A stretch of 32,000 bases of DNA, from positions 1,897,436 to 1,929,435 of the forward strand of contig NC_003902.1 of NCBI RefSeq assembly GCF_000007145.1, in the 5' to 3' direction. The notes below the pieces were generated by a model. That model ran no database searches. It was not told the DNA's origin and was given only the letters and a program-made list of their open reading frames with translations. The position numbers and the translations under genes were made by a program. Source of the stretch: Xanthomonas campestris pv. campestris str. ATCC 33913 (lineage in GTDB: Bacteria; Pseudomonadota; Gammaproteobacteria; Xanthomonadales; Xanthomonadaceae). Below, in pieces: positions 2,045 to 24,583 of the stretch; the first letter of the stretch is position 1; every line of letters starts with the position of its first letter.

Positions 2045-2069
2045 TTCGTGGTCCCAGCCATGACTTCGG
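2045..2069 (+). promoter_or_regulatory. Plant-inducible-promoter (PIP) box, HrpX-type
   Basis: TTCGT-N15-TTCGG (2045-2049 / 2065-2069) fits the consensus TTCGB-N15-TTCGB. A -10-like TAACCT lies at 2100-2105, 30 nt downstream. The xopE ATG is 65 nt downstream of the box. Confidence 0.6.
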
Positions 2070-2133
2070 TGAGCCTACGCAAATCGGAGAGCTTCTCGCT
2101 AACCTTGATGACTCAGTACTGCAGGAGCTGGAA

Positions 2134-3201: not shown

Positions 3202-3202
3202 A

Positions 3203-3241
3203 CTGTCCTCTGGTCGCGGATGTGTCATTCTCAGAGGACAG
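3203..3241. terminator. Hairpin between the convergent xopE and tnpR genes (possible bidirectional terminator)
   Basis: Perfect 10-bp arms CTGTCCTCTG (3203-3212) and CAGAGGACAG (3232-3241) with a 19-nt loop. There is no clear U-tract. Confidence 0.3.
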
Positions 3242-3253
3242 CTGCACGGAATG

Positions 3254-3820
3254 TCAGAAGTTGGCTGCACTAGTGGATTGCAGCGCGGCGTATAGAGCCG
3301 TCTTGCTCACCTTGAGCCGTTTAGCGGCCTCTCGGACATTAAGCCCGTTGGCGATGTGCTCCCGCGCTCGCTGCAACTTGTCGGCGGTGACAACCGGCTT
3401 TCGCCCGCCCTTCCGCCCGCGTGCGGCGGCAGCGGTCAGCCCGGCCTTGGTGCGCTCGCGGATCAAGTCGCGCTCGAACTGGCCCAGTGCGCCGAAGACG
3501 TGGAAGATGAGCCGTCCGCCCGGCGTGGTGGTGTCGATGCTTTCGGTCAGCGACCGGAAGCCGACGCCACGCGCTTCCAGCGCGGCGATTGTCTCGATGA
3601 GGTGTTGCATTGAGCGCCCGAGCCGATCCAGACGCCAGACGGCCAGCACGTCGCCGGCGCGCAGGTAGGCCAGCGCATCAGCCAAGCCGGGCCTGTCGGC
3701 CTTGGCCCCAGAAGCCGTGTCCTCAAAAACGCGCTCGCAGCCTGCCTTGCGTAGCGCATCCGTCTGCAAAGCGGTGTCCTGTTCCGCCGTCGATACCCGC
3801 GCATAGCCGATCAGTACCAT
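3254..3820 (-). CDS. tnpR: Serine recombinase / Tn3-family resolvase
   Basis: 188 aa. The N-terminus MVLIGYARVSTAEQDTALQ carries the catalytic-Ser motif. GRLIFHVFGALGQFERDLIRERT and a C-terminal HTH (REAAKRLKVSKTALY) are also present. Confidence 0.9.
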   Translation of the reverse strand: MVLIGYARVSTAEQDTALQTDALRKAGCERVFEDTASGAKADRPGLADALAYLRAGDVLAVWRLDRLGRSMQHLIETIAALEARGVGFRSLTESIDTTTPGGRLIFHVFGALGQFERDLIRERTKAGLTAAAARGRKGGRKPVVTADKLQRAREHIANGLNVREAAKRLKVSKTALYAALQSTSAANF

Positions 3821-4932: not shown

Positions 4933-5838
4933 TCAAGACCCTCGTTGCGCGTAGCGCCGTTCAAACTCTACAGGTGACAGGTCGCCAGTTGAACCGTGGC
5001 GGCGGTTGGGGTTGTAGAACATCTCGATGTAGTCGAATACCTCGGCGCGAGCGGCGTCCTTGGTGGGATAGGTCCGCCGCCTGATCCGCTCGCGTTTGAG
5101 CAGGCCGAAGAAGCTCTCCACGGGTGCGTTGTCGTGGCAGTTGCCACGCCGACTCATGCTGCACACCAAGCCATGGGACGCCAGGAAACTGCGCCAGTCA
5201 TCGCTGGTGTAGACAGACCCTTGGTCCGAGTGAACCAAGCAACCAGTGTTGGGTTTGCGCCGCCACACCGCAGACAACACCGCCTGCACGACCAACTCGG
5301 TGTCGGCCCGATCGCGCATCGCCCAGCCGACGACCTGCCTGGAAAACAGATCGATCACAACAGCCAAATACATCCAGCCTTCATGCGTGCGGATGAAGGT
5401 GAAATCGCTCGCCCAGGCCGTGTCCGGCTCCGTCACGTCGAACTGTCGGTCAAGCAGGTTGGCCGCCGCCTTGCACTGCATTCCTCCATGGAAGCGCGGT
5501 TTGCGACCATAGCCCACCTGGGCACGCAGTCCCTCGGTGCGCATCAGCCGATGCACCCGATGACGACTACAACGCTCACCCAGATCGCGCAGATCCGTGG
5601 TGATCTTGCGATGCCCATAGACACTGCCGCTGGCCAGCCAGTGGTGCTTGATTAGTCCAAGCAAGCGATCATCTTCCTTGGCGCGCTCACTGTTGGGCGA
5701 GCACAACCAGGCGTAATAACCCGACCGGTTGACCCGCAATACCCGGCACATTGCACACACCCTGAATTCCCCGCAGTGGGCTTGCATGAAGGCGTACTTT
5801 GCCTTTACCCCTTGGCAAAGTACGCGGCGGCCTTTTTT
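4933..5838 (-). CDS. IS3 transposase OrfB (DDE), reached by -1 frameshift
   Basis: The slippery heptamer AAAAAAG is on the minus strand at 5838-5832. Motifs WASDFTFI, HSDQGSVYTS and GNCHDNAPVESFFGLLKRE are present. Confidence 0.85.
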   Translation of the reverse strand, partial: KKGRRVLCQGVKAKYAFMQAHCGEFRVCAMCRVLRVNRSGYYAWLCSPNSERAKEDDRLLGLIKHHWLASGSVYGHRKITTDLRDLGERCSRHRVHRLMRTEGLRAQVGYGRKPRFHGGMQCKAAANLLDRQFDVTEPDTAWASDFTFIRTHEGWMYLAVVIDLFSRQVVGWAMRDRADTELVVQAVLSAVWRRKPNTGCLVHSDQGSVYTSDDWRSFLASHGLVCSMSRRGNCHDNAPVESFFGLLKRERIRRRTYPTKDAARAEVFDYIEMFYNPNRRHGSTGDLSPVEFERRYAQRGS

Positions 5839-9100: not shown

Positions 9101-9190
9101 GTCCCTATCTCCGGTGGCACCTTCGGCCTGCGATGGGGGTGCAGGACGTTCTTGCTCAGCTTCCGGGCTCAAGCGAGCCAAGGTCTGCAT
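6119..9190 (-). pseudogene. Large SF1 (Upf1/DNA2-like, AAA_11/AAA_12-type) helicase with an unrecognised ~390-aa N-terminal domain and a coiled-coil insert; 3' end cut by the IS3 element
   Basis: Walker A is GVNGPPGTGKSTLLRDIVA, motif II is LLVDEAGQATP and motif III-like is VVVGDPQQVEPVV, followed by IVTPFVAVQ. The native sequence stops at ...KWPSERIGT at 6151. The last 10 codons are IS sequence, and the expected (T)VHxxQG motif V/VI region is absent. I prefer the start ATG 9190 (MQTLARL) because GGAGGT lies 8 nt upstream. The ORF is open up to 9301. Confidence 0.75.
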
Positions 9191-9479
9191 CACCTCGACC
9201 TCCAACTCTTTTGCCCGTGCAGTTCCGGCAAACGAAGGACTTGGCGCAGGCCTACGTGCGTGCGGTCGTGCTTGGGGAGGGCTATGCTCGGCTCTTCGCA
9301 CAGTTGAAGGATCAACGCGTGGCCAAGCTCAGCAAGTCGGACGCTGCTCATAGCTCGTCTGACGAGTGCCGGGAATCTCCAGGAGCTGACGCTCAAGCGC
9401 ACCCATCAGCTGCACGGCAGGATGACGGAGCAGCGGCAAATCGGCAGCGCTAAGGACCGGAAGTTTTCTTAGAACCTGT

Positions 9480-9998
9480 TCACGATCTTCTGAGCAATAG
9501 TGCCAAGAAGGCCAAATGGATGAACTGCAGGCTGGTGTTGAGTTTGCGCTCGCAGTTCTTCCATAGCCTTCGGTTCTTCTCCAGCCAAGCAAAACTACGC
9601 TCGACGATCCATCGCTTGGGCATGACCTTGAAGGTATGCAGTTCGCTGCGCTTGGCAATCTGCACCGTGAGCTGTTCGCCTAAAATCTCTCGCACGCCGT
9701 CGGCAAACCGTACTCCGGTGTAACCGCTGTCGCACAGTAAGCTTTGTACATGCGTCAAGTTTGACTGGCAGCGCTCCAACGCTTGCAGCGCACCTTTGCG
9801 GTCGGTCACCTCCGCCGTCGTCACCGCGATTGCATGGGGCAATCCCTGAGTATCAACAGCGATATGCCGCTTGATGCCCGACACCTTCTTGCCCGCGTCA
9901 TATCCCTTTTGCCCTGCTGTGTCCGTGTTCTTTACGCTCTGCGCGTCCACGATCAAGAACCTGGTGCAAGCGTTGCGCTCCTGTCTGGCGCGGGCCAC
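9480..9998 (-). CDS. IS5-family transposase C-terminal (DDE) ORF, joined to the N-terminal ORF by -1 frameshift
   Basis: LIVDAQSVKNTD...KRHIAVDTQGLP...LLCDSGYTG...RWIVERSFAWLEKNRRLWKNCERK shows a DDE_Tnp_1-type pattern. The -1 reading from the A-run joins the two ORFs. Confidence 0.85.
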   Translation of the reverse strand: MARARQERNACTRFLIVDAQSVKNTDTAGQKGYDAGKKVSGIKRHIAVDTQGLPHAIAVTTAEVTDRKGALQALERCQSNLTHVQSLLCDSGYTGVRFADGVREILGEQLTVQIAKRSELHTFKVMPKRWIVERSFAWLEKNRRLWKNCERKLNTSLQFIHLAFLALLLRRS

Positions 9999-10879: not shown

Positions 10880-13060
10880 ATGCTGCAAGTGCAGCTGACA
10901 AGGAGTGTTGCCGTGTCAATTCGGGCCGTTGCGTGTCTCTCTGTTTACTCAGTCCCGTCAAAGGGCGCGCGTTGCGCAGCTCTCTTGATACCGTTTTTTT
11001 TTAGTGCCTATGGGTTACTAGGCGCTAGCCCTGCGCACGCCCAAACCCCGCCTAAAGCTACATTCTGCGCGCTGCCCCTCGGCTGCTACGACACGATGGA
11101 GAAGGCTGCCGATGCCCTTCGCAACTCCAAGGACTATCAAGGCATCGGGCAGTATTTGAAGCCCTACTCAAAAGCTTTTTTGAATCGGGGAGCGGGAGAG
11201 GTCTGGACCTATTTCCGTGTCCCGTTTCTAAAGGCCGCCTCGGTCTCTGGCCCGTCCTATGGAGTCAATTTGGGTATCTACGGGGTCGGAAACCCCGGCT
11301 GCACAGCGTCCCCAGAGTTTGGATCAAGCTGGTGCACGGAGGAAGGCGCACTCATCGCCAAGTCCTTGGACATCCTAACGACAAAGCTCGGGAAATCTTG
11401 TTCACTTCAGTCCAGTACTCAAACGTCGGATTACAATACGACTGGTCTTGGCCTCTCCTCAAATGGCGATGTTAGTTATAGCTCAGACAAATATTTCAAC
11501 GCGACATTTAATTGTCTGTCGAACTCGGGGGCACCTGTCTCAGTGTCGTGGCGTTGGAATGTCTACAAGAAGCGAAAGTTGACGTGCGAAGCAAACTTCA
11601 CGCCTTCTCAGGGAAATTTAATTCTCGCGGAGGCAGCTCTTACGACAGAGGCTGTTTGTAAGCCCAAGAACGATGACAACACCTGGGTCACGTCGCCCTT
11701 GAAGCAGTTCCAAAGTTGCAGCACAAACAACCCTTGCCATCCCACGACAGGCGATAAGTCTCGCGAAGAGAAAGACTTCGAGTTCGCAGGTCGTTCTTTC
11801 AATCGCTATTATCATTCCGTCAATCAGACCAAGAGTGTCATACCGGTCGGAGAGGGCTGGTCGTTGAGTTACAGCGACCGATTCGACAGTTCCAACACAG
11901 CCTATCTCGACGAGGCGGGCAACAGGGATGTTTTCACCACGGTTGCTGCTGGCACCGGCCGTGCCCGGAATTCGGGACGGCTGTATCGCCGCATCAGCAA
12001 TAGCACTACGTATTACCGAGTCATCGAAGAAACTGGCGAATATCGCGATTTCGGCAAGGATGGCGAGCTGCTCGCGGTGCGCAATCCAGCCTCGCCGGAC
12101 CGTGACGTAACCGTAGTCTACGAGGGCACGCGCATTGCGCGATTGGTCGATGGTCATGGCCGCGCCGTGACGTTCGCCTATACGGACGGGCGTGTCACGG
12201 GCATGGAGATTCCGGGTGGCGGAATCGTTCTTTACGACTACGATGTTGACGGTAATTTGATTGCCGCCACGTATCCCGATGGTGCGAAGCACCTTTACCA
12301 CTATCACGAGAAGGGACTTGCGGAACCTCAGCTGGTCAACTATTTAACTGGTATCACCGGGGAGAGCGGGCAGCGCTATGCATCGTTTGGTTACGACACC
12401 TATGGACGCGTGATAAGCAGCGTTCTCCATGGCGATACCGGGGCGGTCGATGGAGTGACTCTGAACTACGTGGCCGAAGGCGTCACGGAAGTCACCCAGG
12501 CATCTGGCGCGGTCAAGCGCTTCGAGTATGGGTCTACCATTTTCAGCCCGGTCAACAACGTAACCGAAGGCGCAGCAAGCACGTCCAACACCTACTTCAG
12601 CGATGGTCGACTGCAAAGCGTGACGGACGCATCGGGCAGTAAGGTTTCCTACGAATACGCGCCGGCGTATCGATCAGCCGTGACGGTCGGTGACGGCACG
12701 CAGGAGGCGGTGCGCACTGAGAGCGTGAGGGATGCGCTGACCCACCAATTGACCGAGCTCAATGTGAAGGGGGCACAGGGGCTGGTTGTGTCCAAGCGAT
12801 GGACTCGCAATGAGCGTGGCCAAGCACTGACCCAGGTCGAGCAAGATGCCGTTTCCGGGAAGCAGCGTCAGCAGACCTTCACCTATTGCGAGCAGGCCGA
12901 CGTAACCGCAGGAAGCTGCCCCCTGGTGGGAGTGCTGCTGCGTGTGGACGGAGCGCGAACAGATCTCAGCGACGCCACCACGTACGACTACTATCCCGCG
13001 GCTCAGGGCGGGGACCTGAAGACGATCACCAACGCAGTGGGCCAGGTCACCCAGTTCCTT
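10880..13060 (+). pseudogene. rhs: Rhs/YD-repeat protein, 5' segment (Sec signal peptide, Cys-rich N-domain, YD repeats), interrupted by an IS5-family element
   Basis: A signal-like LLIPFFFSAYGLLGASPAHAQ-TPP is present. NPCHPTTGDKSREEKDF marks the start of the shell, followed by YD repeats (FAYTDGRVTGMEIPGG, YDYDVDGNLIAATYPDG...). The frame continues in 14569-16789 once the IS is removed. Confidence 0.85.
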
Positions 13061-14568
13061 AGTCGCCCCTGAAAAACCCCCAATCACCCAACGCCCGCAA
13101 GGCCTTGATGTCTGCAGCGGCGTGCCAGAACTACCAGTTTTCGCTACGCTGAAGGCTGGTTTCTGGCAATTTCCACTCATGCATACACGCCGTCCTGCTG
13201 CCGAGCACATGCCTGCCGAGGAGTTGTTTCGTTCGCGCCTGGAGAACCAGATCGATCTGCGGCATCCGCTGGCGCAGCTGAGCCAACGGATGCCGTGGAC
13301 GGCGTTGGAGCAAGCACTTTCATCGCGCTTGCCGGCCACCCAGGCTGGTGGCGGTCGGCCGGCATTGCCGGTGCGGCTGATCGCCGGTTTGCTCTACCTC
13401 AAACACGCCTACGACCTGTCCGATGAGGCGGTGTGCGAGCGTTGGCTGGAAAATCCGTATTGGCAGTTTTTCACTGGCGAGGTCGTGTTCCAGACGCGCT
13501 TGCCGTGCGATGCCAGCTCGCTGACGCGCTGGCGTCAGCGGCTTGACGAAGCGGGGATGGAAGAGTTGCTGGCACACACCATCAACGCTGCACATGCCAT
13601 GCAGGCGGTGGACGCACGCGAGTTGTCGCGGGTGATCGTGGACACCACGGTGCAGGAAAAGGCGATTGCCTATCCGACCGATAGTCGGTTGCTGGAGGTG
13701 GCACGCAAGAAACTGGTGCTGCTGGCCAAGCGTTACGGCATCGGGTTGCGGCAGAGCTACGCACGGCAAGGTCCGGCCCTGAGCCGCAAGGCGGGCCGCT
13801 ATGCGCATGCACGCCAGTTCAAGCGCATGCAGCGCGTGCTGCGACGTCAACGCACGGTCTTGGGGCGGGTGTTGCGCGATATCGCGCGCAAGCTGGACCA
13901 GGTGGAACCCGGCGTGCGCGAGCGCATCGCGGTCTGGCTGGAACGTGCGCAACGGCTGTACACGCAGCGTCCGAAGGACAAACAAAAACTGTACGCATTG
14001 CATGCCCCGGAAGTGGAATGCATCGGTAAGGGCAAGGCGCGTCAAGCGTACGAATTCGGCGTCAAGGTCGGCATTGCGGTCACCGCCTGCAAGGGATTGG
14101 TCGTGGGTGCGCGTAGCTTCCCGGGCAACCCGTACGACGGCGACACCTTGGCCGAGCAGCTGGAGCAGACACGCGGGTTGCTGCAGGATCTGAGCGTAGA
14201 ACCGACGGTGGCGATCGTGGACCTGGGCTATCGCGGGCGCGAGGTCGATGGCGTGCAGGTGCTCCATCGTGGCAAGGCCAAGACGCTGACGCGACGGCAA
14301 TGGCGCTGGATCAAACGACGGCAGGCGGTGGAACCGGTGATCGGACATCTGAAAGACGACTGCAGGTTGCGTCGCTGCAGGCTGAAAGGTGCACAAGGCG
14401 ATGCGCTGCACGTACTCGGCTGCGCCGCCGGCTACAACCTGCGCTGGCTGCTGCGCTGGATCGCGTTTTTGCGTGCCTGGATGCGGGCGATGGGATGGCC
14501 ATCCTTTAGCGCCGTGCCGCTGTCGCCGATGACACTTGGTGCTTGAAGGGGGTTTTTCAGGGGCGACT
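13061..14568 (+). mobile_element. IS5-family insertion sequence (IS5 group, IS1479-like size, ~1.5 kb) inside the rhs gene
   Basis: The IRs are AGTCGCCCCTGAAAAACCCCC at 13061-13081 and the reverse complement at 14548-14568. Both junctions carry CCTT(AG) (13057-13060 and 14569-14572), consistent with a 4-bp TSD. Confidence 0.9.
13122..14546 (+). CDS. IS5-family DDE transposase
   Basis: The ORF is up to 474 aa; the true start may be the internal MPAEELFRSRLENQIDL. LPVRLIAGLLYLKHAYDLSDEAV, VIVDTTVQEKAIAYPTDSRL, AIVDLGYRG and VEPVIGHLKDDCRL are typical of IS5-group transposases. Confidence 0.9.
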   Translation: MPELPVFATLKAGFWQFPLMHTRRPAAEHMPAEELFRSRLENQIDLRHPLAQLSQRMPWTALEQALSSRLPATQAGGGRPALPVRLIAGLLYLKHAYDLSDEAVCERWLENPYWQFFTGEVVFQTRLPCDASSLTRWRQRLDEAGMEELLAHTINAAHAMQAVDARELSRVIVDTTVQEKAIAYPTDSRLLEVARKKLVLLAKRYGIGLRQSYARQGPALSRKAGRYAHARQFKRMQRVLRRQRTVLGRVLRDIARKLDQVEPGVRERIAVWLERAQRLYTQRPKDKQKLYALHAPEVECIGKGKARQAYEFGVKVGIAVTACKGLVVGARSFPGNPYDGDTLAEQLEQTRGLLQDLSVEPTVAIVDLGYRGREVDGVQVLHRGKAKTLTRRQWRWIKRRQAVEPVIGHLKDDCRLRRCRLKGAQGDALHVLGCAAGYNLRWLLRWIAFLRAWMRAMGWPSFSAVPLSPMTLGA

Positions 14569-16789
14569 CCTTAGTTACGATAGCGCCGGCCGCCTGCTGT
14601 CGCAGAAGGATCCGAATGGGGTCGTGACCGACTACAGCTACGATGCGCGAGGTCGGCTGACGGCAAGCATTGTCCGGGGACAGGACAGCGGCTCGGAGAC
14701 GGATGACCGCATTACGCGCTACAGCTATTGGCCCACCGGCTTGGTCAAGCAGGTTGCGCTGCCGGGTGGCGACGTGTCTGACTTCACCTACGACAGCGCA
14801 TTCCGCCTGACCAAGGTTTCGGATCGTTACGGAAATGCCATCCTCTATACGCTCGACAAATCCGGACGGCGAGTTAAGGAGGAGATCCAGGACTCAAAAG
14901 GTGTGCTTAAGGCCACCATGTCCCGGCTCTACGATGAGCTAGGCCACCTAAAAACAACCGCAGATGCGCAGGGCAACCCGACGGATTTTACCTACGATGC
15001 AGTGGGCACGTTGAAGGAGCGGACAGATGCCATGGGTAGGTCAAGCACCTATACCTATGATGCCTTGCATCGCTTGAAGCAGAGTATCGAAGACGCCGGC
15101 GGCATCAAGGCGACGAGCGCTTTTCAATACGACGTGCTTGGACAACCGTCAGTGGTGACGGATCCGAAAAGCTTGAAGACTACCTACCAGCGCAACGGTC
15201 TGGGCGAACTGTTGGCGCTGACAAGTCCCGACACGGGCAGCACCGGCTTCACCTACGACGACGCAGGCAACGTGCTGTCTAGGAAGGACGCAGCCAACCG
15301 GCAGGCCACCTACACCTACGATGCCTTAAACCGGCCAGTATCGGTGTCCTATGCCGATGCAGCGCTTGAGACCCGTTTTGTCTACGACGTGGCCCCGGCT
15401 GTCTGCGTGGCGGGAGAGCAGTTCGCAGCCGGGCGCCTGGCCAGCATGAAGGACGGCAGCGGCACAACGCAGTATTGCTACAACCGATTCGGTGACCTGG
15501 TGCGCAAGGTCCAGACGACCAATGGCAAGGCACTGACGGTTCGTTATGCCTACACGGCAGGCGGGCGCCTGACGAGCATGGTCTATCCGGACGGGGCGAT
15601 GGTTGACTATGTACGCAATGAGCTGGGCCAGGTCGCCGAGGTGGGCTATACCGCGCCTGGAGGCTCGCGCGAGGTGTTGGTCAAGGGTGCCACGTATCTG
15701 CCCATGGGCCCGGTGGACGGCTGGACCTACGGCAACGGCCGCGTGCTGACTCGAGCTTACGACCAGGATTACCGCCCCAAGGCCATTCAGGACAAAGCGG
15801 TTGGCGGTCTGGATGTCGGGTTCGGGTTCGATGAGGTGGGCAATCTCACCTCACTGACCCCAGCCGGCAATCCAACGCCGGAGATCGGCCTGGGCTACGA
15901 CACGCTCGGCCGCCTCACAGCCCTCACCGACGGTGTCACCGGAACCGTCATTGATGGCTATAGCTACGACGCCACCGGCAATCGCCTCAGCGCCAAAGTC
16001 GGCAGCGTTACACAGGCTTACACCTATCCAACGACCAATCATCGCCTGAGTGCAGTAGCCGGCGTGGCGCGCACGTACGACAAGACAGGCAATACGCTGA
16101 GCATCGGTGGCAAGGCGCGGGAGTTCCCCTACGACGCATCCGGCCGCATGAGCATGGTCAAGCGTGCAGGCGTGCTGGTGATGAACTATCGCTACAACGG
16201 TAAAGGCGAGCAGGTGCGCCGCTTCTTGGGCACAACTATCACCTACACGCTTTATGACGAAGCCGGCCACTGGCTGGGCGACTACGATAACAATGGCGCG
16301 CCCAAGCAGCAGGCGATCTGGCTGGACGACCTACCGGTGGGCCTGCTGGCCAACGCCAACAAGCTGCACTACATCGAACCTGATCACCTGGGCAGCCCGC
16401 GTGTGGTGGTTGACCCGGTTCGTAACGTGGCGGCGTGGAGCTGGAGCCTAAAGGGCGAGGCCTTCGGCAACACTGCGCCGAATCAGGATCCGGATGGCGA
16501 TGGTGCGGCGCTGGTGTTGGATATGCGCTTTCCGGGGCAGCGGTTTGATGCGGCTAGCGGGTTGAATCAAAATTACTTCAGGGACTACGACTCTGCTACC
16601 GGGCGGTATGGGCAGAGTGATCCGATTGGATTGGGCGGCGGTTTGTCGACATTTGGCTATGTTGGAGGAAGTCCACTTTACCTGATTGATCCGCTAGGGC
16701 TTGAGTCTGGCACATTCCAATTTGGCCAGTACCGAATGAAGCAGCAGAATTTGAGTCGGGCGCTAATCGAGGTGGTGCGACGGCAATGA
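14569..16789 (+). pseudogene. rhs: Rhs/YD-repeat protein, 3' segment including the core end (DPLGL) and a 28-aa tail
   Basis: It has many YD repeats (YSYDARGRLT, FTYDSAFRLTKV, YTYDALHRLKQ, YTYDALNRPVSVSY...). The Rhs core-end signature is RYGQSDPIGLGGGLSTFGYVGGSPLYLIDPLGL. Only ESGTFQFGQYRMKQQNLSRALIEVVRRQ follows before the stop. Confidence 0.85.
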
Positions 16790-17148
16790 AGATACTTTCC
16801 TCGTTGAATTCAGAAATGAAGAGCCGAAATATTGCGGGGAGCGATCAGTTCTATCACTGCCTCGCTTCTTGTAGGGCAACGCAAGCGACAAAGAATCCTG
16901 GCCTAGTCTTAGAAATGATGGCACTTAAGGAAACCAAGGATTACTACGCTGGACGCTTGGGATTGTATGGGGATGGAAGGCGGCGTGGCCATTACGAGAT
17001 GCAAAGTGACAATCAGCAAGATATGGCCGCTAATCAGCTAGGTGCGACATGTCAGATGGGCGAGGATTGCCCCCGTCGTTGTATGGGCCTTGTCCCGGAG
17101 CGCTCTCGGCCATTTTTATCCAATTACATCCCGGAATGGGGTCAAGAT
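16786..17148 (+). CDS. Serum-amyloid-A-like small protein, ATGA-coupled to rhs; last codons displaced by the IS4 insertion (reconstructs to 122 aa ending ...EWGQDE)
   Basis: NIAGSDQFYHCLASCRAT matches the vertebrate SAA signature NYIGSDKYFHARGNYDAA. NPGLVLEMMALKETKD aligns with GPGGVWAAEAISDARE, DMAANQLG with DQAANEWG, and GLVPE with GLPEKY. The start ATG overlaps the rhs stop (caATGA). The ORF runs into the IS at 17149, and the native end gag-tag lies at 18508-18513. Confidence 0.55.
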
Positions 17149-18498
17149 CTAAGGTATCCCCACGTTTTACACCGTAAGCGTCATCTGCTCGCGCACTGCC
17201 GCAGGCAGTGCGCGCAAGCGCCCTATCCACCGTGAGACGGGTTCCATCGGCCACTGCCTGACCAGCGCTTCTCGGCCGATGCGTAGCGTGGAGTAAAGCT
17301 TGCGTGTGCTGTTGCGAGGAGACAGCCACTGGGCGATACCGGTCGCTTCGCATCCCAGCCCCGCCAACCAGCTGGCGAATGCAGCCAACGTATTGATCAG
17401 CAGCAGGATCTGCAGTCGCTCGCCGCGTCGGGTCAAACTGTCTTCCAGCGCCTGGCCGTAGCGATGTGATTTCAGATCGCGAAATGCAAGCTCGATCTGC
17501 ATCCGTCGTGCGTACACATTGACCAACTGCTTTGCGCTGGGCGCCTGCAGCTGCGGGGATGCAACGATGAGCCAAGGCTCGCGCTCGCGCGCTGCGGCCT
17601 TCAGACTCGATGACGCACGCGAGACTTTGGCGGGTGAGCGGCGATTGCACTGTTTGCGCCCTTGCCGTGCCTTGGCGTAAATCACCAACCTGCAATCGAG
17701 TGGATCGCTGCGATTGGCCTGCATCGGCGGTAACTCGCATGCACGATTGGACGCCAACACATGCAGTTTCCGGCTGTCGATCCACTGATCTGCTTCATCC
17801 CGCACGTCCTGCGGCTTGACTTGCGTGCGCCCGCGCAGTCGCCCAACCCAACACCAGCCCATGGCCGATACAGCGCGGAACCACGGTGTCCGGAAGCCGG
17901 CGTCAGTGACCAGGATCGGGCGAACATCGTCCGGAACCAGTGCCCTCAGTTGTTGCAAGAAGCGTCTTTCTGCACCAGGCGATCCCTGCTGCTTTCCTGG
18001 CACTACCATGTCCAGCAAGGTAAGCGTGCGGCCGCCCACCGGCACCGCTGCGCGCAGCAGACACCACGATTTGTCTGGCTTCAGATCGCTCCAGTCGATG
18101 ACGATTACCGGCTGCGCGCCGCGCAGCAGCCAGTGCGCCATCTCGTGGTCGATCACTGATCGCTCGACCTGCAAATTGCGATTACTCAACAGGCGATCAA
18201 CTGCCTTGAGCGGCGCGCGCACCCGCAGTGCGCTCGGCCACGAACGTGCGATGTCCATCAGTGTCAGCCTGCGTCCGTGCAACAACGCCTCGACCGCATG
18301 CAGCAACGCGCGTTCGCGCAACGCATGCATCCCGGACAGTGAGTTGGGCAGGCACTTCTGCAATACTTCGCTGGCGCGCATGGTCGTCAACCTTCTCTGG
18401 CTTAGTCACCTTGAAGATTGCGCCATGCGCGCACTTTCTTCCAGGCAATTACGTCGCAAGTGATTGATTTGCCAGGAGGAAATGTGGGGAAACCTCAG
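17149..18498 (-). mobile_element. IS4-family insertion sequence (IS10-like ends, 1350 bp) with a perfect 9-bp target duplication
   Basis: The ends are CTAAGGTATCCCCACGTTTT (17149-) and the reverse complement CTGAGGTTTCCCCACATTTC (-18498). The direct repeat GGTCAAGAT lies at 17140-17148 and 18499-18507. Confidence 0.9.
17167..18390 (-). CDS. IS4-family DDE transposase
   Basis: 407 aa. VIVIDWSDL, ILVTDAGF and the Y-x2-R-x3-E-x6-K signature in YARRMQIELAFRDLK are present. Confidence 0.9.
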   Translation of the reverse strand: MTTMRASEVLQKCLPNSLSGMHALRERALLHAVEALLHGRRLTLMDIARSWPSALRVRAPLKAVDRLLSNRNLQVERSVIDHEMAHWLLRGAQPVIVIDWSDLKPDKSWCLLRAAVPVGGRTLTLLDMVVPGKQQGSPGAERRFLQQLRALVPDDVRPILVTDAGFRTPWFRAVSAMGWCWVGRLRGRTQVKPQDVRDEADQWIDSRKLHVLASNRACELPPMQANRSDPLDCRLVIYAKARQGRKQCNRRSPAKVSRASSSLKAAAREREPWLIVASPQLQAPSAKQLVNVYARRMQIELAFRDLKSHRYGQALEDSLTRRGERLQILLLINTLAAFASWLAGLGCEATGIAQWLSPRNSTRKLYSTLRIGREALVRQWPMEPVSRWIGRLRALPAAVREQMTLTV

Positions 18499-18505
18499 GG
18501 TCAAG

Positions 18506-18988
18506 ATGAGTAGGTCCACACTTTTTTCGTTCGCTCTTCTTGCTCTTTCGGGCTGTGCCCCCTATGACGCCCCAAGAAGTTATAAGGATCTAGAAAGCCT
18601 GAAGAGGTCGAATGATTTTTCAGTTTCAGCGTCGCTAGGTGGCATACCTAGTGATGCTACCGAAATCGATGTTTACTCTGATATTGATTCGGGTCTCACG
18701 ATGATGTCCTATAAAACTGCTCAGAGTGTGGCTGTTTCTGAAGTGTTCAATCGCCGGTTGCCTGCTGGCCAATACCAGCTTGTCCAGGACAACGTTGGAT
18801 TTGCAGGTGCCACTATCGTGGACATACGTTATGGATGTGAGAGCAGAGAGGTGAAGGCGAGCGACGAGTCGCTGAAATATCAGCAAGTCGTGTTTTTAGG
18901 GGCGGCTTCCGGCAGGCAGTATCGGTGGAACAGCGTGAATCCTGATATTTACAGGAAGCTCTGCTCAAATCCAGCGGTAGGAGCCTAA
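18506..18988 (+). CDS. Small lipoprotein of unknown family (candidate immunity partner of the Rhs tail module)
   Basis: MSRSTLFSFALLALSGC carries a lipobox (LSGC). 160 aa in AT-rich DNA. Before the IS insertion its ATG overlapped the end of the SAA-like ORF by 8 nt (caagATGAGTAG). Confidence 0.65.
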   Translation: MSRSTLFSFALLALSGCAPYDAPRSYKDLESLKRSNDFSVSASLGGIPSDATEIDVYSDIDSGLTMMSYKTAQSVAVSEVFNRRLPAGQYQLVQDNVGFAGATIVDIRYGCESREVKASDESLKYQQVVFLGAASGRQYRWNSVNPDIYRKLCSNPAVGA

Positions 18989-19153
18989 TTGGGTAGCAGA
19001 TGATGCCCTTCGTTCGATTGCTTGCAGCCATTTAGGGCGCAGTCTGTTTGATGCGACAGATGCGCCTTGGCTGTAGCTGTGGATGCCTGGCGTTACTTAA
19101 GGAATGTAGAGGATATTTTCGCTCGTTGTCAGTTGACGCCTTCGCTGAGGTCA

Positions 19154-19838
19154 TCAAGCTCTCAGAGCATTGCTTTTCAAGGAAACGACTGACGTTGTCT
19201 GATTCATCAAGGCCGACAGGGAATCGAGGCTGAGGCCGTAATCAAGCACGGACAGGCCCGGCGAGACAGCCCGGAGTCCGTCCAGCTTCTCCTTGGCGGT
19301 GAAGGCCCGGCTGTAAGTGACGTGGTGCTCGTCGTCCAATTCGTGGTCGACCAACTGAGCCCGGAGCTCGGACACCACGCCGGCGCCTTGCAACTCTTGG
19401 ATCAGGGTTTTGCGAAGCGAGTGAAAGCCGCGCTTGGCCGTGGGCCAGTTTTTGCCCACTTCGGCCAGGTGCCGGCTGAAGGCTTTGGAAATCCAGTTGC
19501 CCTGGCCGTTCTTGGCATCGGCTTTGGCCGCCGGGAACAAGCGCTCCTGGCCTTGGCCCCGCGCCTGCTCGACCCAGTCCAGGAAGCCCAGGGCGAGCAA
19601 GTCGGGGTGGACCGGCACCGTCCTCAAGCTCACGTCCGTCTTTACCTTCTGATGCTCTCCCTCATCTGAAATCTGGATGCAGGGGATACCGCCGTCCTCC
19701 ACCACATCGGCGGTCAGCAGTTGGCCGACCTCCGACGCGCGGGCGCCGGTATACAGGCCAATGAGGGAGGCCCATCGCGCTGCCAGGTCAGGGCTTCGAA
19801 GGTCGCGGGTGCGATTAAGGCCTGGACTTGGTGGGCCA
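19154..19838 (-). pseudogene. Tyrosine recombinase (phage-type integrase), catalytic C-terminal domain only; 5' part missing
   Basis: LIGLYTGARASEVGQL carries the Arg I region, GFHSLRKTLIQ the HxxR motif, and DHELDDEHHVTYSRAF the His/Tyr region. There is no N-terminal SAM-like or arm-binding domain. The homology stops where repeat copy B begins. Confidence 0.75.
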
Positions 19839-19935
19839 CCATGAGCAACGCGTGCTCCACGATGTCCGTCGGCACGTTGTCGCAATCGACCAACACGGCG
19901 AAATGTGCTTCAAGCGGGTTGTTTGAGTTGCTCAT
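19839..19935 (-). pseudogene. Second, shorter 5' fragment (about 32 codons) of a NYN/LabA-like gene
   Basis: MSNSNNPLEAHFAVLVDCDNVPTDIVEHALLMVA parallels the fragment at 10436-10532. It diverges immediately afterwards into integrase-derived sequence. Confidence 0.5.
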
Positions 19936-20080
19936 GTCTGTGAGGTCCGAGTTTATGCAGACAGACAATGGCGTCAGCAACTTGCCGATGGCAAGCGGGC
20001 GCTAGCAATCGAGCCAAGCCCGGCGTTATGATCGAGGAAACATCGAAAGGAAACCTGCCCAGCAGGCTTTCTGCAACGGT
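19839..20080. repeat. Direct repeat copy B (NYN 5' coding end plus leader)
   Basis: See copy A (10436-10677). Same orientation, roughly 80% identical by hand alignment. Confidence 0.7.
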
Positions 20081-20260
20081 GAGAAGGGCTTGAGTCGAAG
20101 GTGATCCGATCCCACTCTCTCCGCCAATCGTCTTGTGCGTTCGACCTCGACCGCCGCTAAGCCTCGAATAGTTAACTCCGAAGGCTCTCCTCCTGCTTCT
20201 CGACATCGCATTCGCGGAAGGCACGGTTCACTACCGCGTCTCTCGACATTTCTGCCACAC

Positions 20261-20665
20261 ATGCGTAGCGCGACTCCCAAGCAAGCAGCTGACGGGCCTC
20301 TCCGCACCCCAGATGGCCGGTATCTCGTAGTCTGCGGGCGCTTGTGGCGCGCGACCAATCCTGATCTACCGGCAGAAGCACGCGATGCGCTGGTGCATGC
20401 CTTGATGGACGCGCGACGTGCGGTCAAAGCGGCGCTACGTACGCGCGACGCGATGCAACTCAAAGCAGCGCGCGGTGAGGTGGATGCTGCAAAAACAGGA
20501 CTCGGTGAGCGTGGGGCGGTCTGGTGGAACGACGGTGCACCCGATTTCAATCGTCACCTGATGCGGACGGCGCGGAGTAACCGGGGTGTACGGGGTACAT
20601 GCCGATTCCGAGCACCGGCCGCGCCCGCTTGGCGGCTGCGCAGTCGTTTTGATCGCTGCTCTTAG
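20261..20665 (+). CDS. Conserved hypothetical small protein (RTPDGRY...GRLWRATNP...GERGxVWW type)
   Basis: MRSATPKQAADGPLRTPDGRYLVVCGRLWRATNPDLPAEARDALVHALMDARRAV...LGERGAVWWNDGAPDFNRH resembles a widespread proteobacterial DUF that I cannot name. The last ~39 codons lie inside the 112-bp repeat element, so the native C-terminus is uncertain. Confidence 0.5.
   Translation: MRSATPKQAADGPLRTPDGRYLVVCGRLWRATNPDLPAEARDALVHALMDARRAVKAALRTRDAMQLKAARGEVDAAKTGLGERGAVWWNDGAPDFNRHLMRTARSNRGVRGTCRFRAPAAPAWRLRSRFDRCS
20548..20659. repeat. ~112-bp repeat element, copy 1 (inverted relative to 25701-25812)
   Basis: The reverse complement aligns with 25701-25812 (GC.ATCAAAAC.ACTGCGCAGCCGCCA.GCGGGCGCGGCC.GTGCTCGGAATC..CATGTACCCCGTACA...). 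By eye it is roughly 85-90% identical. Confidence 0.6.
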
Positions 20666-20674
20666 TGGAGAGGG

Positions 20675-21352
20675 TCAGCCCAGGCTTGGGCTGGCTGCCA
20701 GCAGGGCTGCCTCCAGGCGCAGCAGATAATCGGCGAAGCCGCCACTGGCACGTGCACTGCGGCGCGCGCTGGTGTTCACCACCGGGCTGGCCAGGCGCGC
20801 GATGCGCATGCCGGCCTGTTCCAGGGCGGCGACCAGCGCGACATCTTCGCTGCTACTCGCGTTGGAAAAGCCGCCGGCGGCCAGATAGGCGGAGGTCCGC
20901 ATGCCCAGGTTTGCGCCATGCACATGCGGATGGCCGTCGTGCCGGATTTCGCTGGCCAGAAACGCGGCGCGGGTCTGGCTCAGGTGATCGCGCCAGTCGG
21001 TCACTTCCACGACGCCGCAGAAGGCATCTGCCGCGCAGGCGAGTTGCGCCATAAGCCAATCGGGCGGCACGCGGGTGTCGGCATCGGTGCACGCCAGCCA
21101 ATGCGCACCGCGCGCAATCGCCGCGCTTGCGGCGGCCGCGCGTGCAACGCCCACGCCGCCGCACACCTCCTGGGTGATCGCGCCATGCGCGCGGGCGATG
21201 ACGCCGGTTTGATCGGTGCAACGGTCCAGTGCGACGTGAATCTCGACCGCTTCGCCTTGCAGTGCCGGGTGCTGCGCGGCCACGCGGATGGACTGCAGGC
21301 ACGGCCCGATCAGTGCCTGCTCGTTATGCGCGGGGATGGTGACCGCGATCAT
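20675..21352 (-). CDS. Family 2 glycosyltransferase
   Basis: 226 aa from MIAVTIPAHNEQALIGPCLQSI, a GT2 N-terminal pattern, with the DxD region CTDADTRV. Its ATG overlaps the upstream gene stop (ATGA). The tracked 285-aa ORF is an Arg-rich 5' extension. Confidence 0.8.
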   Translation of the reverse strand: MIAVTIPAHNEQALIGPCLQSIRVAAQHPALQGEAVEIHVALDRCTDQTGVIARAHGAITQEVCGGVGVARAAAASAAIARGAHWLACTDADTRVPPDWLMAQLACAADAFCGVVEVTDWRDHLSQTRAAFLASEIRHDGHPHVHGANLGMRTSAYLAAGGFSNASSSEDVALVAALEQAGMRIARLASPVVNTSARRSARASGGFADYLLRLEAALLAASPSLG

Positions 21353-21945
21353 CGCAACTGCTCGCGTTGTGCGATTGAGGGGCCGGCCATCCATGCCTGC
21401 AGCAGGAAATCTGCGTCTTCGTAGCGGCACAGGGTATCGCGCGCCAGCACCTGATCGAGCGCTTGATGCACCTGCTCCGCACTGCGCACCGCGCCTTCGA
21501 ACGGATGCCGCCAGTGGCAGGCCACCAGGCAACCTTGCGGCGCCAGCGATGTGGCGAACAAAGCGACGGTGCGCTCGAATGCATTTGCGTCGAGGTAATA
21601 ACCGACTTCGCTGAAGACGATCAGGTCGAATTGACCGGTTGGCCAGTCGGCCGGATGGTTGGCTTGTTGCAGCGTGATGCCTGGGTGCTGCTGCACGCGC
21701 TCGCTGGCCAGCTTGACGGCGTGGTGAGAAAGATCGGTTGCCAGCAAGCGGGTGCAGCGCGTGCCCAGCTCTGCGGTGAGCTCGCCATTGGAACAGCCGA
21801 ATTCCCAGCCGCGGTCGACCAAGGGAAAGGGCAGGGCGGCCAGCAGCACGGCGCGCTTGCGTTGCTCGTACCAGCGCGAGCGGTAACCGAACGGGTCAGC
21901 GTCCGCGTAGAGCTGCTCGGAGTCGTCGCTGTTCAACACGCTCAT
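21349..21945 (-). CDS. NodS-like SAM-dependent methyltransferase
   Basis: 199 aa from MSVLNSDDSEQLYADADPFGYRSRWYEQRKRAVLL...GWEFGCSNGELT...FDLIVFSEVGYYLD...ACHWRHP, the NodS-family pattern. There is ATGA overlap at both ends. Confidence 0.8.
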   Translation of the reverse strand: MSVLNSDDSEQLYADADPFGYRSRWYEQRKRAVLLAALPFPLVDRGWEFGCSNGELTAELGTRCTRLLATDLSHHAVKLASERVQQHPGITLQQANHPADWPTGQFDLIVFSEVGYYLDANAFERTVALFATSLAPQGCLVACHWRHPFEGAVRSAEQVHQALDQVLARDTLCRYEDADFLLQAWMAGPSIAQREQLR

Positions 21946-22703
21946 GCGAGGAACACTTCGAACGTGCGATCGAAACGCGCCAGCACATGCGGCGGAAGAA
22001 TCGGCTCGTTGACCGGCGGAGTGCAGGTGCCGAGCTGGGTGGAAAAACACGTGATCGCGCGCTGTTTGGCGGCGTGCACGGCGGGCGTGAGCTCGAAACG
22101 CAGCGCGCGGTCATCTTCGAAAACGCCGTCGCCCGGTTGCGACCAATGCCATGCCCACACCGGATAGGTGAGCAGGCGCACACCGTGGCGCGCGCAGGCG
22201 GCGCGGGTGGCACGCGCAGCGGCTTCGTGGTCGGGGTGCGCGTCGCGGTGCCAGGTGACCAACACAAGATCCTGTGGCTGGAGATGGCTGGCAATCGCGT
22301 GCGTCATGGCGTCTTCGTGCTCGTGCAATGCGCCGTCGCCAAGATCGCAATGGGTCACCGCGTGATTGGTCAGCCCAAGGGCCGCCAGTGCCGCATCGAG
22401 TTCCTGCCTGCGCGCAGGCGCCAACAGGTGCGGTGCCCAGGCGGGCACGTGCGGGTAGGCCATCTCGCCATCGGTCAGCGCAATCACACAGACTGGAATG
22501 CCGTGTGCTTGCGCGGCGGCCATCAAACCACCACAGCCAAGCACTTCATCGTCCGGATGTGGCGCAACCACCACCAGCCGCCGCGCATCCTGCAGCAGCG
22601 CGCCCAGTGACGCTTGCGGCATGTGCTGGAGCACGGCTGCAGCGCGCCACACCGATTCCGGAGTTCCGGTGCCTTCGATCGGCTGCCCTGCTAGAGCGTC
22701 CAT
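21942..22703 (-). CDS. PIG-L/LmbE-family N-acetylglucosaminyl deacetylase
   Basis: 253 aa from MDALAGQP. VVVAPHPDDEVLGCGG and HRDAHPDHEAA are the zinc-binding motifs of the family. It overlaps the upstream gene by 13 nt. Confidence 0.85.
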   Translation of the reverse strand: MDALAGQPIEGTGTPESVWRAAAVLQHMPQASLGALLQDARRLVVVAPHPDDEVLGCGGLMAAAQAHGIPVCVIALTDGEMAYPHVPAWAPHLLAPARRQELDAALAALGLTNHAVTHCDLGDGALHEHEDAMTHAIASHLQPQDLVLVTWHRDAHPDHEAAARATRAACARHGVRLLTYPVWAWHWSQPGDGVFEDDRALRFELTPAVHAAKQRAITCFSTQLGTCTPPVNEPILPPHVLARFDRTFEVFLA

Positions 22704-23689
22704 GCGGCCGCCTCCTGGTGGCAGCGCTCGCCCAGTGATTGCAGGTCCCGCTCTGCATGGTGTTGGCGAATGAAGACCAGCAGATCTGCACACCGCTGCG
22801 CATGCGCGCCCTGCATGCAAAGCGGGCCCGGGCCGAGTGCGCGGGCGACGCGATCCACGGTGTCGCGGGCGATAGCTTCGACACTGCTGCGCAGCTGCAT
22901 CACCTCGCGCTGATGCGCCAGGTGTTGCTGCGCATCGATGCGTGCCGCCAGCTCGCGCATGAGCGCACGTGTGCTGGCCAGGCCCGCATCGATGGCGCCG
23001 AGGTGCGCAGCGGCGTGTGGGTCGCGGCGCACGCGCGGTGATTGCCGCAATACGTCGGCCACCGCCGCGGTTGCGCCGAACCAGCACGCAGCAATGCCGG
23101 CACCGCCGTGCCAGAACCCCGGGCGCGCCAGATAGCCGCCATCTGCGGCAACCAGCTGTGCCGGCGTGGCAGAGAAGGTGACGTTGGCCGTTTCGATCGC
23201 GCGCATGCCGAGCGCCTGCCACGCGCTGGCATCGATGCGAATGCCGGGCTGATCGAGCGCAACGGCAAACAGACCTGGGGCACCCTGGTGCGGAGCGGTG
23301 ACCAGTGTATGCGTGACATGCGCTGCGCCCGAGCACCAGGCCTTGGTGCCGTGCAATGCGTTGCCGGTGAAGTGCATGTCTGTGCCTGGCGGCTCGGTCG
23401 CCCACACGGCCCAGCACTGCCCTGGCTGCATGAGATCACTGCCCAGATCCGCGCAGATGGCCTGCGCGTCGTAGTGCGCCTCCAACAATTTGGCAACGCA
23501 CAAGTCCGCCGCCGCGATGTCGGCGAGGATGCGCCAGCGTGCGAGGGTGTCGCCACGGCCAGGTAGGGGCAGCGTGGGATGCATGGCCAGCCACGTATTC
23601 GCTGCGGCCAGGTCGAGGCCGCTCTGCGCAGATGCTGGAGAAAGTGATGACGAAATGAGTGTCATCGGACTGATGCGTGCGTTCATCAC
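22691..23689 (-). CDS. Acyl-CoA dehydrogenase-like protein (short form)
   Basis: 332 aa. LHGTKAWCSGAAHV, ALGMRAIETANVTF and the C-terminal helical part resemble ACAD middle and C-terminal domains. This is the first gene of the overlapping four-gene operon. The call is by general resemblance only. Confidence 0.6.
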   Translation of the reverse strand: MMNARISPMTLISSSLSPASAQSGLDLAAANTWLAMHPTLPLPGRGDTLARWRILADIAAADLCVAKLLEAHYDAQAICADLGSDLMQPGQCWAVWATEPPGTDMHFTGNALHGTKAWCSGAAHVTHTLVTAPHQGAPGLFAVALDQPGIRIDASAWQALGMRAIETANVTFSATPAQLVAADGGYLARPGFWHGGAGIAACWFGATAAVADVLRQSPRVRRDPHAAAHLGAIDAGLASTRALMRELAARIDAQQHLAHQREVMQLRSSVEAIARDTVDRVARALGPGPLCMQGAHAQRCADLLVFIRQHHAERDLQSLGERCHQEAAAWTL

Positions 23690-23965
23690 GAAAAGCTAAG
23701 CAGCGCTCGGTGCAAGAGGTGTGAGGCGGTCATCGCGGCGCGGTGATGACGCCGGTTGAGTTGGCTTGCGTGTGCTGTGAGCAGGCAGTCACGAGGATTC
23801 GTTGGCGTGCAAGCAACAGAAAGGCGGGAGTCTCGGAGCGGCGGCATTTGCAGCGACGTTGCGAAATTGCAGCCAGCAAGCACATGCACTGGCGCAACAG
23901 CCAGTTCACCTCGCGTGCGTGGCAGATCTTTTACGGTCGCACTGAACTTTCGCGATCAATGAATC

Positions 23966-24583
23966 ATGGCGATGAACAATGAAACGCCGCAGATCCACGA
24001 GGTACATGCGTTGGACGAAGCGGATGCCGGTGCTCCCAGCACCGTCTGGACGATTGGCCATTCCACACGCAGTTGGGAAGCGTTTTTCGCACTGCTGCGC
24101 GTGCACCGCATCGAGGCGGTGGTGGATGTGCGGCGCTTTCCTGGCTCCAGGCGGTATCCGTGGTTTGCAAGTGACGTAATGGCATCGGCGTTGGCCGAGA
24201 TCGGCTTGGCCTACGTCTGGTTGCCGCAGCTCGGTGGACGCCGTCGTGCGCAGCCGGGATCGCCGAATGGGGCCTGGCGTAATGCCGCGTTCCAGGGCTA
24301 TGCCGATCATATGACCAGCGCGGAATTCCAGCAGGCATTTGCGCGAGTGACCACGCTTGCGGCGAGCACGCGTAGCGCGCTGATGTGTGCAGAGGCGCTG
24401 TGGTGGCAGTGCCACCGCCGGTTGATTTCCGATTTGCTGGTGCACCGCGGCCATGCAGTGTTGCACGTGATGAGCGAGAAGCCCCCGCAGCCGCACCAAC
24501 TGACGCCCGGCGCGCAGGCGGCAGGCACGGATTTGATTTATCCACCGCAGCAGGGCGCTTTATTTGCGGAGCACGATGCGTAG
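23966..24583 (+). CDS. DUF488-family protein
   Basis: VWTIGHSTRSWEAFFALLRVHRIEAVVDVRRFPGSRRYPWF and ALMCAEALWWQCHRRLISD are the characteristic DUF488 motifs. Confidence 0.8.
   Translation: MAMNNETPQIHEVHALDEADAGAPSTVWTIGHSTRSWEAFFALLRVHRIEAVVDVRRFPGSRRYPWFASDVMASALAEIGLAYVWLPQLGGRRRAQPGSPNGAWRNAAFQGYADHMTSAEFQQAFARVTTLAASTRSALMCAEALWWQCHRRLISDLLVHRGHAVLHVMSEKPPQPHQLTPGAQAAGTDLIYPPQQGALFAEHDA

Follow-up and report, generated by a model that had tools for sequence, protein, structure and literature searches.

We analysed a 32,000-nucleotide stretch of Xanthomonas campestris pv. campestris ATCC 33913 (contig NC_003902.1, positions 1,897,436 to 1,929,435; hereafter the window) that carries an rhs gene, followed by a short reading frame resembling serum amyloid A (SAA) and by a lipoprotein gene. 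The rhs gene lies in two parts on the forward strand. The N-terminal part (10880..13063, + strand) encodes a DUF6531 header and the first YD/RHS repeats within an open reading frame (ORF) of 10880-13072 (Pfam DUF6531, E-value 5e-9, plus RHS_repeat). A probable Sec-like signal peptide was read by eye at its N-terminus (...AALLIPFFFSAYGLLGASPAHA/QTPP), and this part is collinear with an intact 1589-aa orthologue of X. euroxanthea (locus L003) and with an uninterrupted 1465-aa gene of another X. campestris genome (CP029483.1, L014). The C-terminal part of the shell and the Rhs-associated core (14568..16702, + strand) are encoded by a 748-aa ORF (14543-16789) with 12 stretches of YD/RHS repeats (RHS_repeat PF05593, E-value 8e-63; also TIGR01643). 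TIGR03696 (Rhs_assc_core) spans residues 640-720 of this ORF and ends exactly at the L of the autocleavage motif DPLGL (16688-16702). The two parts of the gene are split by an insertion sequence (IS) of the IS5 family (13064..14567, + strand; transposase 13122-14546, NF033578, E-value 1e-164), which is flanked by the direct repeat TCCTTA(GT) and whose empty site is found both in the metagenome contig L002 and in L014.

Downstream of DPLGL the rhs frame continues for 28 residues (ESGTFQ...VVRRQ), and its stop codon (TGA, 16787-16789) overlaps the ATG at 16786 that starts an apparent 122-aa ORF. This ORF, which ends EWGQDE-TAG, was obtained by removing in silico an IS4-family element of 1350 bp (17149..18498, - strand; transposase 17167-18390, NF033591, E-value 5e-107) together with one copy of its 9-bp duplication (GGTCAAGAT, at 17140-17148 and 18499-18507). 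The element has imperfect terminal inverted repeats and separates the final two codons from the rest of the tail, displacing the last sense codon GAG and the stop TAG to 18508..18513 (+ strand); the reconstruction equals the sequence of L002 (...GGTCAAGATGAGTAG), from which the IS4 element is absent. The rebuilt ORF overlaps by 8 nt (ATGAGTAG) a gene for a 160-aa lipoprotein with the lipobox LSGC (18506..18988, + strand). The GC fraction of the tail is 0.51-0.53 and that of the lipoprotein gene 0.48-0.52, compared to 0.58-0.64 in the rhs core. The original prediction, made from the letters of the window, had listed the 28-residue extension, the stop/ATG overlap, the 122-aa ORF after excision of IS4, the 8-nt overlap with the LSGC lipoprotein gene and the higher AT content of the module, and each of these was reproduced here.

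The one-nucleotide deletion and the order of decay

An in-frame toxin of ~100-200 aa after DPxGL is absent from the window copy, which has 28 residues at this point, and is present in close relatives. The contig L002 is 99.7-100% identical to the window over 12520-13063, 14568-17148 and 18498-24513 and is free of both IS elements; its junction (...GGTCAAGATGAGTAGGTCC...) is exactly the one produced by the in-silico removal of IS4. This contig encodes a 707-aa protein (P0002) in which an extra C joins the Rhs core and the SAA-like domain in one ORF (...DPLGLESGTFQFGQDRMKQPEFESGANRGGATAMKILSS...EWGQDE), giving a tail of 150 aa. Alignment of the two DNA sequences places a 1-nt deletion, the loss of one C, at 16744..16745 (+ strand; AAGCAG-CAGAA in the window and AAGCAGCCAGAA in L002). 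Of the 28 residues after DPLGL, the first 14 (ESGTFQFGQYRMKQ; 16703..16744, + strand) keep the rhs frame, are authentic and match the tails of L002, of X. dyei (L005) and of two Stenotrophomonas loci (L001 and L006, LESGQFQFGKYRMKQ), while the last 14 are out of frame. The remainder of the toxin tail, a linker followed by the SAA-like domain as identified by profile, structure model, Foldseek and conservation, is read in the shifted frame (16745..17148, + strand). The original prediction had noted that the SAA frame is closed upstream at 16702 and had offered, as its second option, that a frameshift somewhere in 16705-16789 had recently split a toxin domain off the core; the stop is present at 16702-16704, and the deletion falls inside that interval.

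The undeleted allele is found in L002 and in L005 (X. dyei CFBP7245), where a gene of at least 1455 aa has an in-frame tail 92% identical to that of the window, with an overlapping lipoprotein gene next to it. In the Stenotrophomonas loci, one of which (L001) is an array of orphan tails, the tail follows an Rhs core end or fragment without a change of frame (LGLESGQFQFGKYRMKQ...). Since the window copy has a 28-residue tail at the position where the near-identical gene of L002 has an in-frame tail of 150 aa, we regard it as a pseudogene of an Rhs toxin. The same deletion allele, with an identical 149-aa ORF and an identical IS4 junction, is present in L014 (complete genome) and in L015 (draft contig).

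The first option of the original prediction was that the SAA-like protein is normally a separate polypeptide, translationally coupled to an Rhs protein almost without a tail and serving as its effector or accessory. The overlap of TGA and ATG in the window, L014 and L015 would suit this proposal, the layout being common to several X. campestris strains, but the ATG at 16786 corresponds to an internal Met codon of the continuous tail (...GGATAMKILSS...) in L002, L005, L001 and L006, and one missing C is enough to explain the split. The IS4 element within the ORF of the same strains also argues for decay. Among the 68 relatives that carry the motif [FYWH]HC, the domain is at the extreme C-terminus in 67, and DPxGL lies 37-85 residues upstream of the motif in 40, in which the domain is fused in frame to the Rhs core. 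Furthermore, a product made on its own would lack both a signal peptide and any other route to the periplasm, the location of the partner lipoprotein. The coupled arrangement is thus very improbable, and the DNA alignment indicates that the split between core and SAA-like domain is an artefact of the single missing C at 16744|16745. The locus should be annotated as a single disrupted rhs gene with an intact, probable immunity gene, rather than as a minimal-tail Rhs gene followed by a new coupled effector.

Two further explanations of the frameshift were ruled out. Sequencing error was rejected on the identical deletion in three assemblies, including a complete genome. Programmed frameshifting was rejected on the grounds that CAGCAGAA is without a slippery run, that the relatives are in frame and that an IS lies within the same ORF. 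The presence of both the deletion and IS4 in three assemblies, one of them a complete genome, shows that they are real mutations and not read errors.

IS4 is present in L014 and L015 and is also implied by lipoprotein copies on contig ends. These are represented by a "partial" X. campestris lipoprotein (P0083, 28 member sequences on contig ends) that starts RVK, a reading from the IS side, which indicates that the IS4 insertion is widespread in X. campestris. Since L014 is without IS5 but already has the frameshift and IS4, the IS5 insertion is the latest of the three lesions and is strain-specific. The toxin gene of the window is dead three times over, by the 1-nt deletion, by IS4 and by IS5, with its probable immunity gene intact. 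The locus gives an order of decay in X. campestris in which the frameshift and IS4 are common to strains, IS5 came later and the probable immunity gene was kept throughout. The H/E/D, cysteine and other conserved positions of the tail domain are all kept in the window copy, which suggests that the inactivation is recent. As a separate observation, a fragment of a DDE transposase gene (DDE_Tnp_1, E-value 4e-33; 9480-9998, - strand) lies just upstream of the rhs gene, and the 32-kb window holds at least five IS-related genes.

Serum amyloid A homology and the conserved site of the tail domain

The likeness of the tail domain to vertebrate SAA had first been seen by eye, and profile and structure comparisons were used to evaluate whether it goes beyond chance. 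When searched alone, the 122-aa protein of the window matched the Pfam SAA family (PF00277) with an E-value of 2e-4 (22.1 bits). A k-mer-indexed protein search with this ORF gave one relative (P0001), and a two-sequence profile gave no match in the PDB even at an E-value of 10. An exhaustive profile search yielded 82 relatives at E-values of 1e-3 or below, and a search for related loci with a narrower alignment (A5) yielded three loci. The family profile, built from a 53-sequence alignment of tail-domain relatives, matched the SAA structures 7ZH7, 4IP8, 4IP9 and 4Q5G with E-values of 6e-13 to 1e-10/6e-10, and 40 of the 53 relatives matched PF00277 individually (best E-value 9e-22). The AlphaFold2 model of the domain, computed from the family alignment, has a predicted local distance difference test (pLDDT) score of 95.3 and a predicted template-modelling score of 0.89. 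Its helices at residues 2-14, 20-35, 38-57 and 69-87, followed by short helices from residue 95, form a four-helix core with a short fifth helix. The six best Foldseek hits of this model in the PDB were human SAA1 and mouse SAA3 (probability 0.77-0.99, template-modelling (TM) scores 0.50-0.63). The profile alignments to SAA stop near residue 90, and the pairing of GLVPE with GLPEKY, proposed by eye, is supported neither way. There is no NCBIfam model for either the toxin tail or the lipoprotein.

Overall, the profile matches and the predicted fold make the homology of the tail domain to SAA well supported, and the likeness noted earlier by eye held up. The domain shares with vertebrate SAA a homologous fold and the motifs GxDxxFH, E..D and D..AN..G; vertebrate SAA, in contrast, is a free secreted plasma protein without the cysteines of the tail domain, without an Rhs carrier and without an immunity partner.

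The original prediction had also put forward an SAA fold in an Rhs system, encoded as a separate polypeptide, as not known to be described, which is out of date: the prok-SAA family, within the SAA-Wnt clade of the Lipocone superfamily, has been defined as a polymorphic-toxin tip, and animal SAA has been proposed to derive from it (Burroughs, Nicastro and Aravind, eLife 2025, PMC12419801). According to that study, members of the SAA-Wnt clade carry an sNxxGR motif in H4 as well as a short fifth helix, the ancestral Lipocone active site consists of His (H2), Glu (H3) and Asp (H4) with an acidic residue at the end of H3, and the activity predicted for prok-SAA is the removal of head groups from lipids or lipid carriers, outside the cytoplasm. 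Its supplements list 195 prok-SAA loci, and a context network links RHS, Prok-SAA and immunity genes, with Imm-SAA placed upstream to Prok-SAA (75), RHS (17) and MuF (14). The Prok-SAA sequence file contains WP_219723883.1, which has the same domain as the homologue P0033 of our search, as well as an E. coli-type sequence close to our homologues P0018 and P0024. The part of the supplementary text that was available does not mention Xanthomonas.

Judged by its sequence, the domain of the window is a member of this published family. The positions D20, H24, C25, C29, E49, D52, D75, D79, N83, G86, C89, C95 and C99 are conserved in the tail domain. Of these, D20, H24, C25, E49, D79, G86, C95 and C99 are invariant in the 53-sequence alignment, and C29, D52, D75 and N83 are conserved in at least 90% of the sequences; the window copy keeps all positions of both groups, including H24, E49, D52 and D79. 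Residues H24, E49, D52, D79, N83 and G86 appear to fit the published Lipocone site, and in AANQLGA, the segment of the window that corresponds to sNxxGR, the small residue, N83 and G86 are conserved. The tail thus resembles published prok-SAA in its four-helix cone with a short fifth helix, in its H/E/D site, in its C-terminal place behind RHS and in the membrane-anchored or lipoprotein immunity gene downstream, and differs in that the window copy is a pseudogene and does not keep the R of sNxxGR.

The homology to SAA by itself would also be compatible with a toxin that is not an enzyme and that kills by lipid binding or membrane insertion, disturbing or permeabilising the membrane. SAA binds lipoprotein particles and retinol, the complex of SAA3 with retinol (PDB 6py0) is among the Foldseek hits, and the partner protein is membrane-anchored. 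Even so, we consider this mode of killing unlikely. The conserved polar set D20, H24, E49, D52, D75, D79 and N83 lies at the published catalytic positions and has a pattern typical of an active site and not of a lipid-binding surface, and a lipid II phosphatase, TelC, belongs to the same superfamily.

The lipoprotein gene and its relatives

X. campestris entries match the 160-aa lipoprotein at 100% identity, and proteins from X. euroxanthea, X. vasicola, X. arboricola, X. nasturtii and X. hortorum do so at 86-93%. In X. euroxanthea (L003, 8001-8483) and X. hortorum (L004, 8001-8483) the gene is an orphan with no adjoining SAA-type toxin: the orthologous rhs gene has an unrelated tail with its own downstream gene, and the lipoprotein gene follows further downstream. 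Such an arrangement is typical of displaced modules that keep their immunity gene. In X. nasturtii (P0086), about 20 codons' worth of the toxin 3' end remain, out of frame, upstream of the lipoprotein gene.

Related lipoprotein genes follow SAA-type tails in L001, L005, L006 and the metagenome contig L010, and probably in L007 (Burkholderiales), in agreement with the earlier suggestion that the lipoprotein is a partner of the tail. The lipoprotein of the window is 27% identical to the Stenotrophomonas partner (E-value 5e-13) and 27% identical to that of L010 (E-value 2e-14; BLASTP). Between the window and L001 the partners share 27% identity and the toxins 73%, showing that the partner diverges much faster, and the position and overlap of the lipoprotein gene are conserved across toxins that are 40-73% identical. 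Because of this conserved position and overlap, and because orphan copies are kept downstream of Rhs genes with other tails, the lipoprotein is likely the immunity protein of the tail, and we treat the gene as that of its probable cognate immunity protein.

We also considered that the lipoprotein is not an immunity protein, being either an unrelated neighbour or an accessory that helps the toxin to be exported or to mature. No characterised immunity family matches it in sequence or structure, and the weak Foldseek hints are to PsbP/DcrB-like lipoproteins, whose fold is shared with some secretion adaptors. An unrelated neighbour is hard to reconcile with a gene that stands directly downstream of the toxin, with an overlap of 4-8 nt, in Xanthomonas, Stenotrophomonas and L010. 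The faster divergence of the partner, and its retention where the toxin has been replaced, are what is usual for immunity genes and not for export helpers. A role other than immunity is therefore quite unlikely, somewhat more so than a non-enzymatic toxin.

The family to which the lipoprotein belongs was then evaluated by profile and structure comparison. A Pfam scan of the lipoprotein gave nothing significant, and a hit to KTSC was dismissed at an E-value of 0.07. The Foldseek matches of its AlphaFold2 model (PsbP, DcrB and thioesterases) all had low TM scores. Among the immunity proteins of Lipocone toxins, which are all transmembrane proteins or lipoproteins, the Imm-SAA domain is described as one helix and four strands with four absolutely conserved cysteines (PMC12419801). 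The lipoprotein of the window does not have this pattern: beyond the lipobox, only C111 and C153 are conserved in the Xanthomonas and Stenotrophomonas proteins, and no cysteine is conserved in the L007 type. Its model (pLDDT 74) shows six strands and, apart from the helix of the signal peptide, about four helices, compared to a two-helix hairpin and three strands in BamE-like proteins, and there was no BamE among the Foldseek matches listed. Some distant partners carry the YbbD_head domain (PF26610), and an hhalign comparison of the Xanthomonas/Stenotrophomonas lipoproteins with YbbD-type proteins gave a probability of 86.7% (E-value 4e-6); the YbbD-type set (A9) includes the partner from L010, so that this comparison and the BLASTP match to L010 are not fully independent. 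YbbD is not mentioned in the available part of the supplementary text of PMC12419801. Tentatively, and with somewhat less than even odds, the YbbD-like lipoproteins and transmembrane proteins could form an undescribed immunity family specific to SAA-type Rhs toxins.

A distantly related pair is common in Escherichia coli. At an identity of 90% or above, 2856 of 5426 complete E. coli genomes contain matches to the tail of P0018 and to its YbbD_head partner. In the K-12-derived strain ER1709 (L012, 6772-7930) the module lies just after rhsD-ybbC. It starts with an RHS core fragment that is annotated as a pseudogene and ends in an SAA-type tail, and an overlapping gene follows whose 86-aa product has the RefSeq name "YbbD family protein" in another strain. 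We take the core fragment to be ylbH and the partner to be ybbD; a literature search on these two genes found no functional study. The partner ORF of K-12 is itself broken, IS1 lies within the tail in several strains, and the module is often broken by IS1 or by frameshifts. The E. coli module resembles that of the window in having a tail of the same family (...DPLGLSPADV...GTDQFFHCMAFCRVSK...) followed by an overlapping, membrane-anchored YbbD_head (PF26610) gene, to whose product the lipoprotein of the window is distantly related. It differs in that the toxin domain is about 34% identical to that of the window, YbbD has a transmembrane anchor in place of a lipobox, and the E. coli copy is an orphan fragment that is not attached to a full rhs gene. 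If the YbbD-like immunity reading is true, it would tie the pseudogene pair after rhsD-ybbC of E. coli K-12 to the SAA fold.

Proposed mode of action and surroundings of the locus

Overall, these results support, with a probability of about 0.85, the reading that the analysed region forms the 3' end of an Rhs polymorphic-toxin locus of X. campestris that has been pseudogenised, with an SAA-like tip and a lipoprotein antidote gene. Several observations weigh against it. With respect to the gene, a fully intact allele of exactly this gene was not seen, the gene of L005 running off its contig, and L002 itself has a frameshift and a premature stop in the rhs shell, at about L002 900-1030. These lesions are either independent decay or an assembly error; as decay, they would mean that the gene is degenerating in more than one lineage. 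Next to the rhs gene, neither PAAR nor VgrG nor any other secretion gene was seen. With respect to the tail, the 22.1 bits of the single window sequence are below the Pfam SAA gathering threshold of 30.8 bits, the Foldseek E-values of 0.5-2 are weak, which is common for small helical bundles, and this subfamily has not preserved the R of sNxxGR. With respect to the partner, the lipoprotein model is of moderate quality (pLDDT 74) and its best Foldseek TM scores of 0.24-0.28 point to no convincing relative; the lipoprotein fits neither the Imm-SAA nor, clearly, the BamE-like immunity proteins listed for prok-SAA (PMC12419801). Finally, no experiment on any prok-SAA was found among the eight papers that mention the Lipocone superfamily, which makes the chemistry, target and toxicity of the tail predictions.

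In its intact form, the toxin would be the product of one gene that encodes a signal peptide, the DUF6531 header, the YD-repeat shell, the core up to DPLGL and a C-terminal toxin of 150 aa, whose folded part is the prok-SAA Lipocone domain, homologous to vertebrate SAA. The sequence and model comparisons show the gene layout, the three lesions, the homology to SAA, the prok-SAA membership and the conserved pairing of tail and lipoprotein gene, and from there we infer the secretion route, the site of action, the enzymatic chemistry, the target and the immunity function. As in established Rhs biology, the core would cleave itself after DPLGL, and the shell would enclose the free tail and carry it to a neighbouring cell. 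X. campestris pv. campestris is not known to have a type VI system. The tail probably acts in the periplasm or at the membrane surface. Action outside the cytoplasm is suggested by the four to five conserved cysteines, the lipoprotein partner, the published proposal for Lipocone toxins and the precedent of TelC. There, the site formed by His24, Glu49 and Asp79 with Asp52, Asp75 and Asn83 would attack a phosphate-linked head group, the likely target being a membrane lipid or an undecaprenyl-linked cell-wall precursor, by analogy with TelC and lipid II. The lipoprotein would bind and block the toxin in the periplasm, protecting the producer.

TelC of Streptococcus intermedius, the only Lipocone toxin tested, works as a lipid II phosphatase, with its activity confined to the outside of the cytoplasm (PMC12419801). 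The TelC-TipC pair is one of the close known parallels: TelC belongs to the same superfamily and cleaves the phosphate-linked head group of lipid II, and its immunity protein TipC works at the outer face of the membrane. Unlike the tail of the window, TelC is from a clade other than SAA-Wnt and is carried on an LXG protein through a type VII system and not on Rhs, and TipC is unrelated to the lipoprotein of the window. In the window itself the toxin cannot be made or delivered, and only the immunity gene is predicted to be functional. The intact lipoprotein gene would still shield the cell against neighbours with a live allele.

The locus belongs, in decayed form, to a toxin family already known from computational work and is of little biological novelty, since SAA-like tips of Rhs and other polymorphic toxins were catalogued in 2025 and the window copy is dead. 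It does connect SAA-type toxins with partners of a YbbD-like family and with the very common orphan module that follows rhsD-ybbC in E. coli. Bacterial SAA-type toxin/immunity pairs offer a practical route to the biochemical activity of the SAA fold, and with an intact pair, from X. dyei or from an unbroken E. coli allele, it could be tested directly for the first time whether proteins of the SAA fold are enzymes that cut lipid-linked cell-wall precursors, a question that bears on vertebrate SAA.

Just downstream of the lipoprotein gene lies a truncated tyrosine-integrase gene (19154-19885, - strand; 243 aa; Phage_integrase, E-value 3e-6). At the matching position X. hortorum has a 493-aa integrase adjoining dnaX, and the two together suggest that the rhs locus is at the edge of an integrated island. 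The other side of the window carries a gene for a type III effector of the XopE/AvrPphE family (1816-3201, + strand; NF041338, E-value 6e-203), flanked by IS3-family transposase genes (408-1460, + strand, and 4933-5787, - strand); a 157-aa ORF that adjoins it (3195-3668) has no family match. Between these genes and the rhs gene, a 1060-aa AAA_11 helicase-like protein is encoded (6119-9301, - strand) whose best PADLOC match is MkoC (E-value 4e-42), and it may be a component of an anti-phage system.

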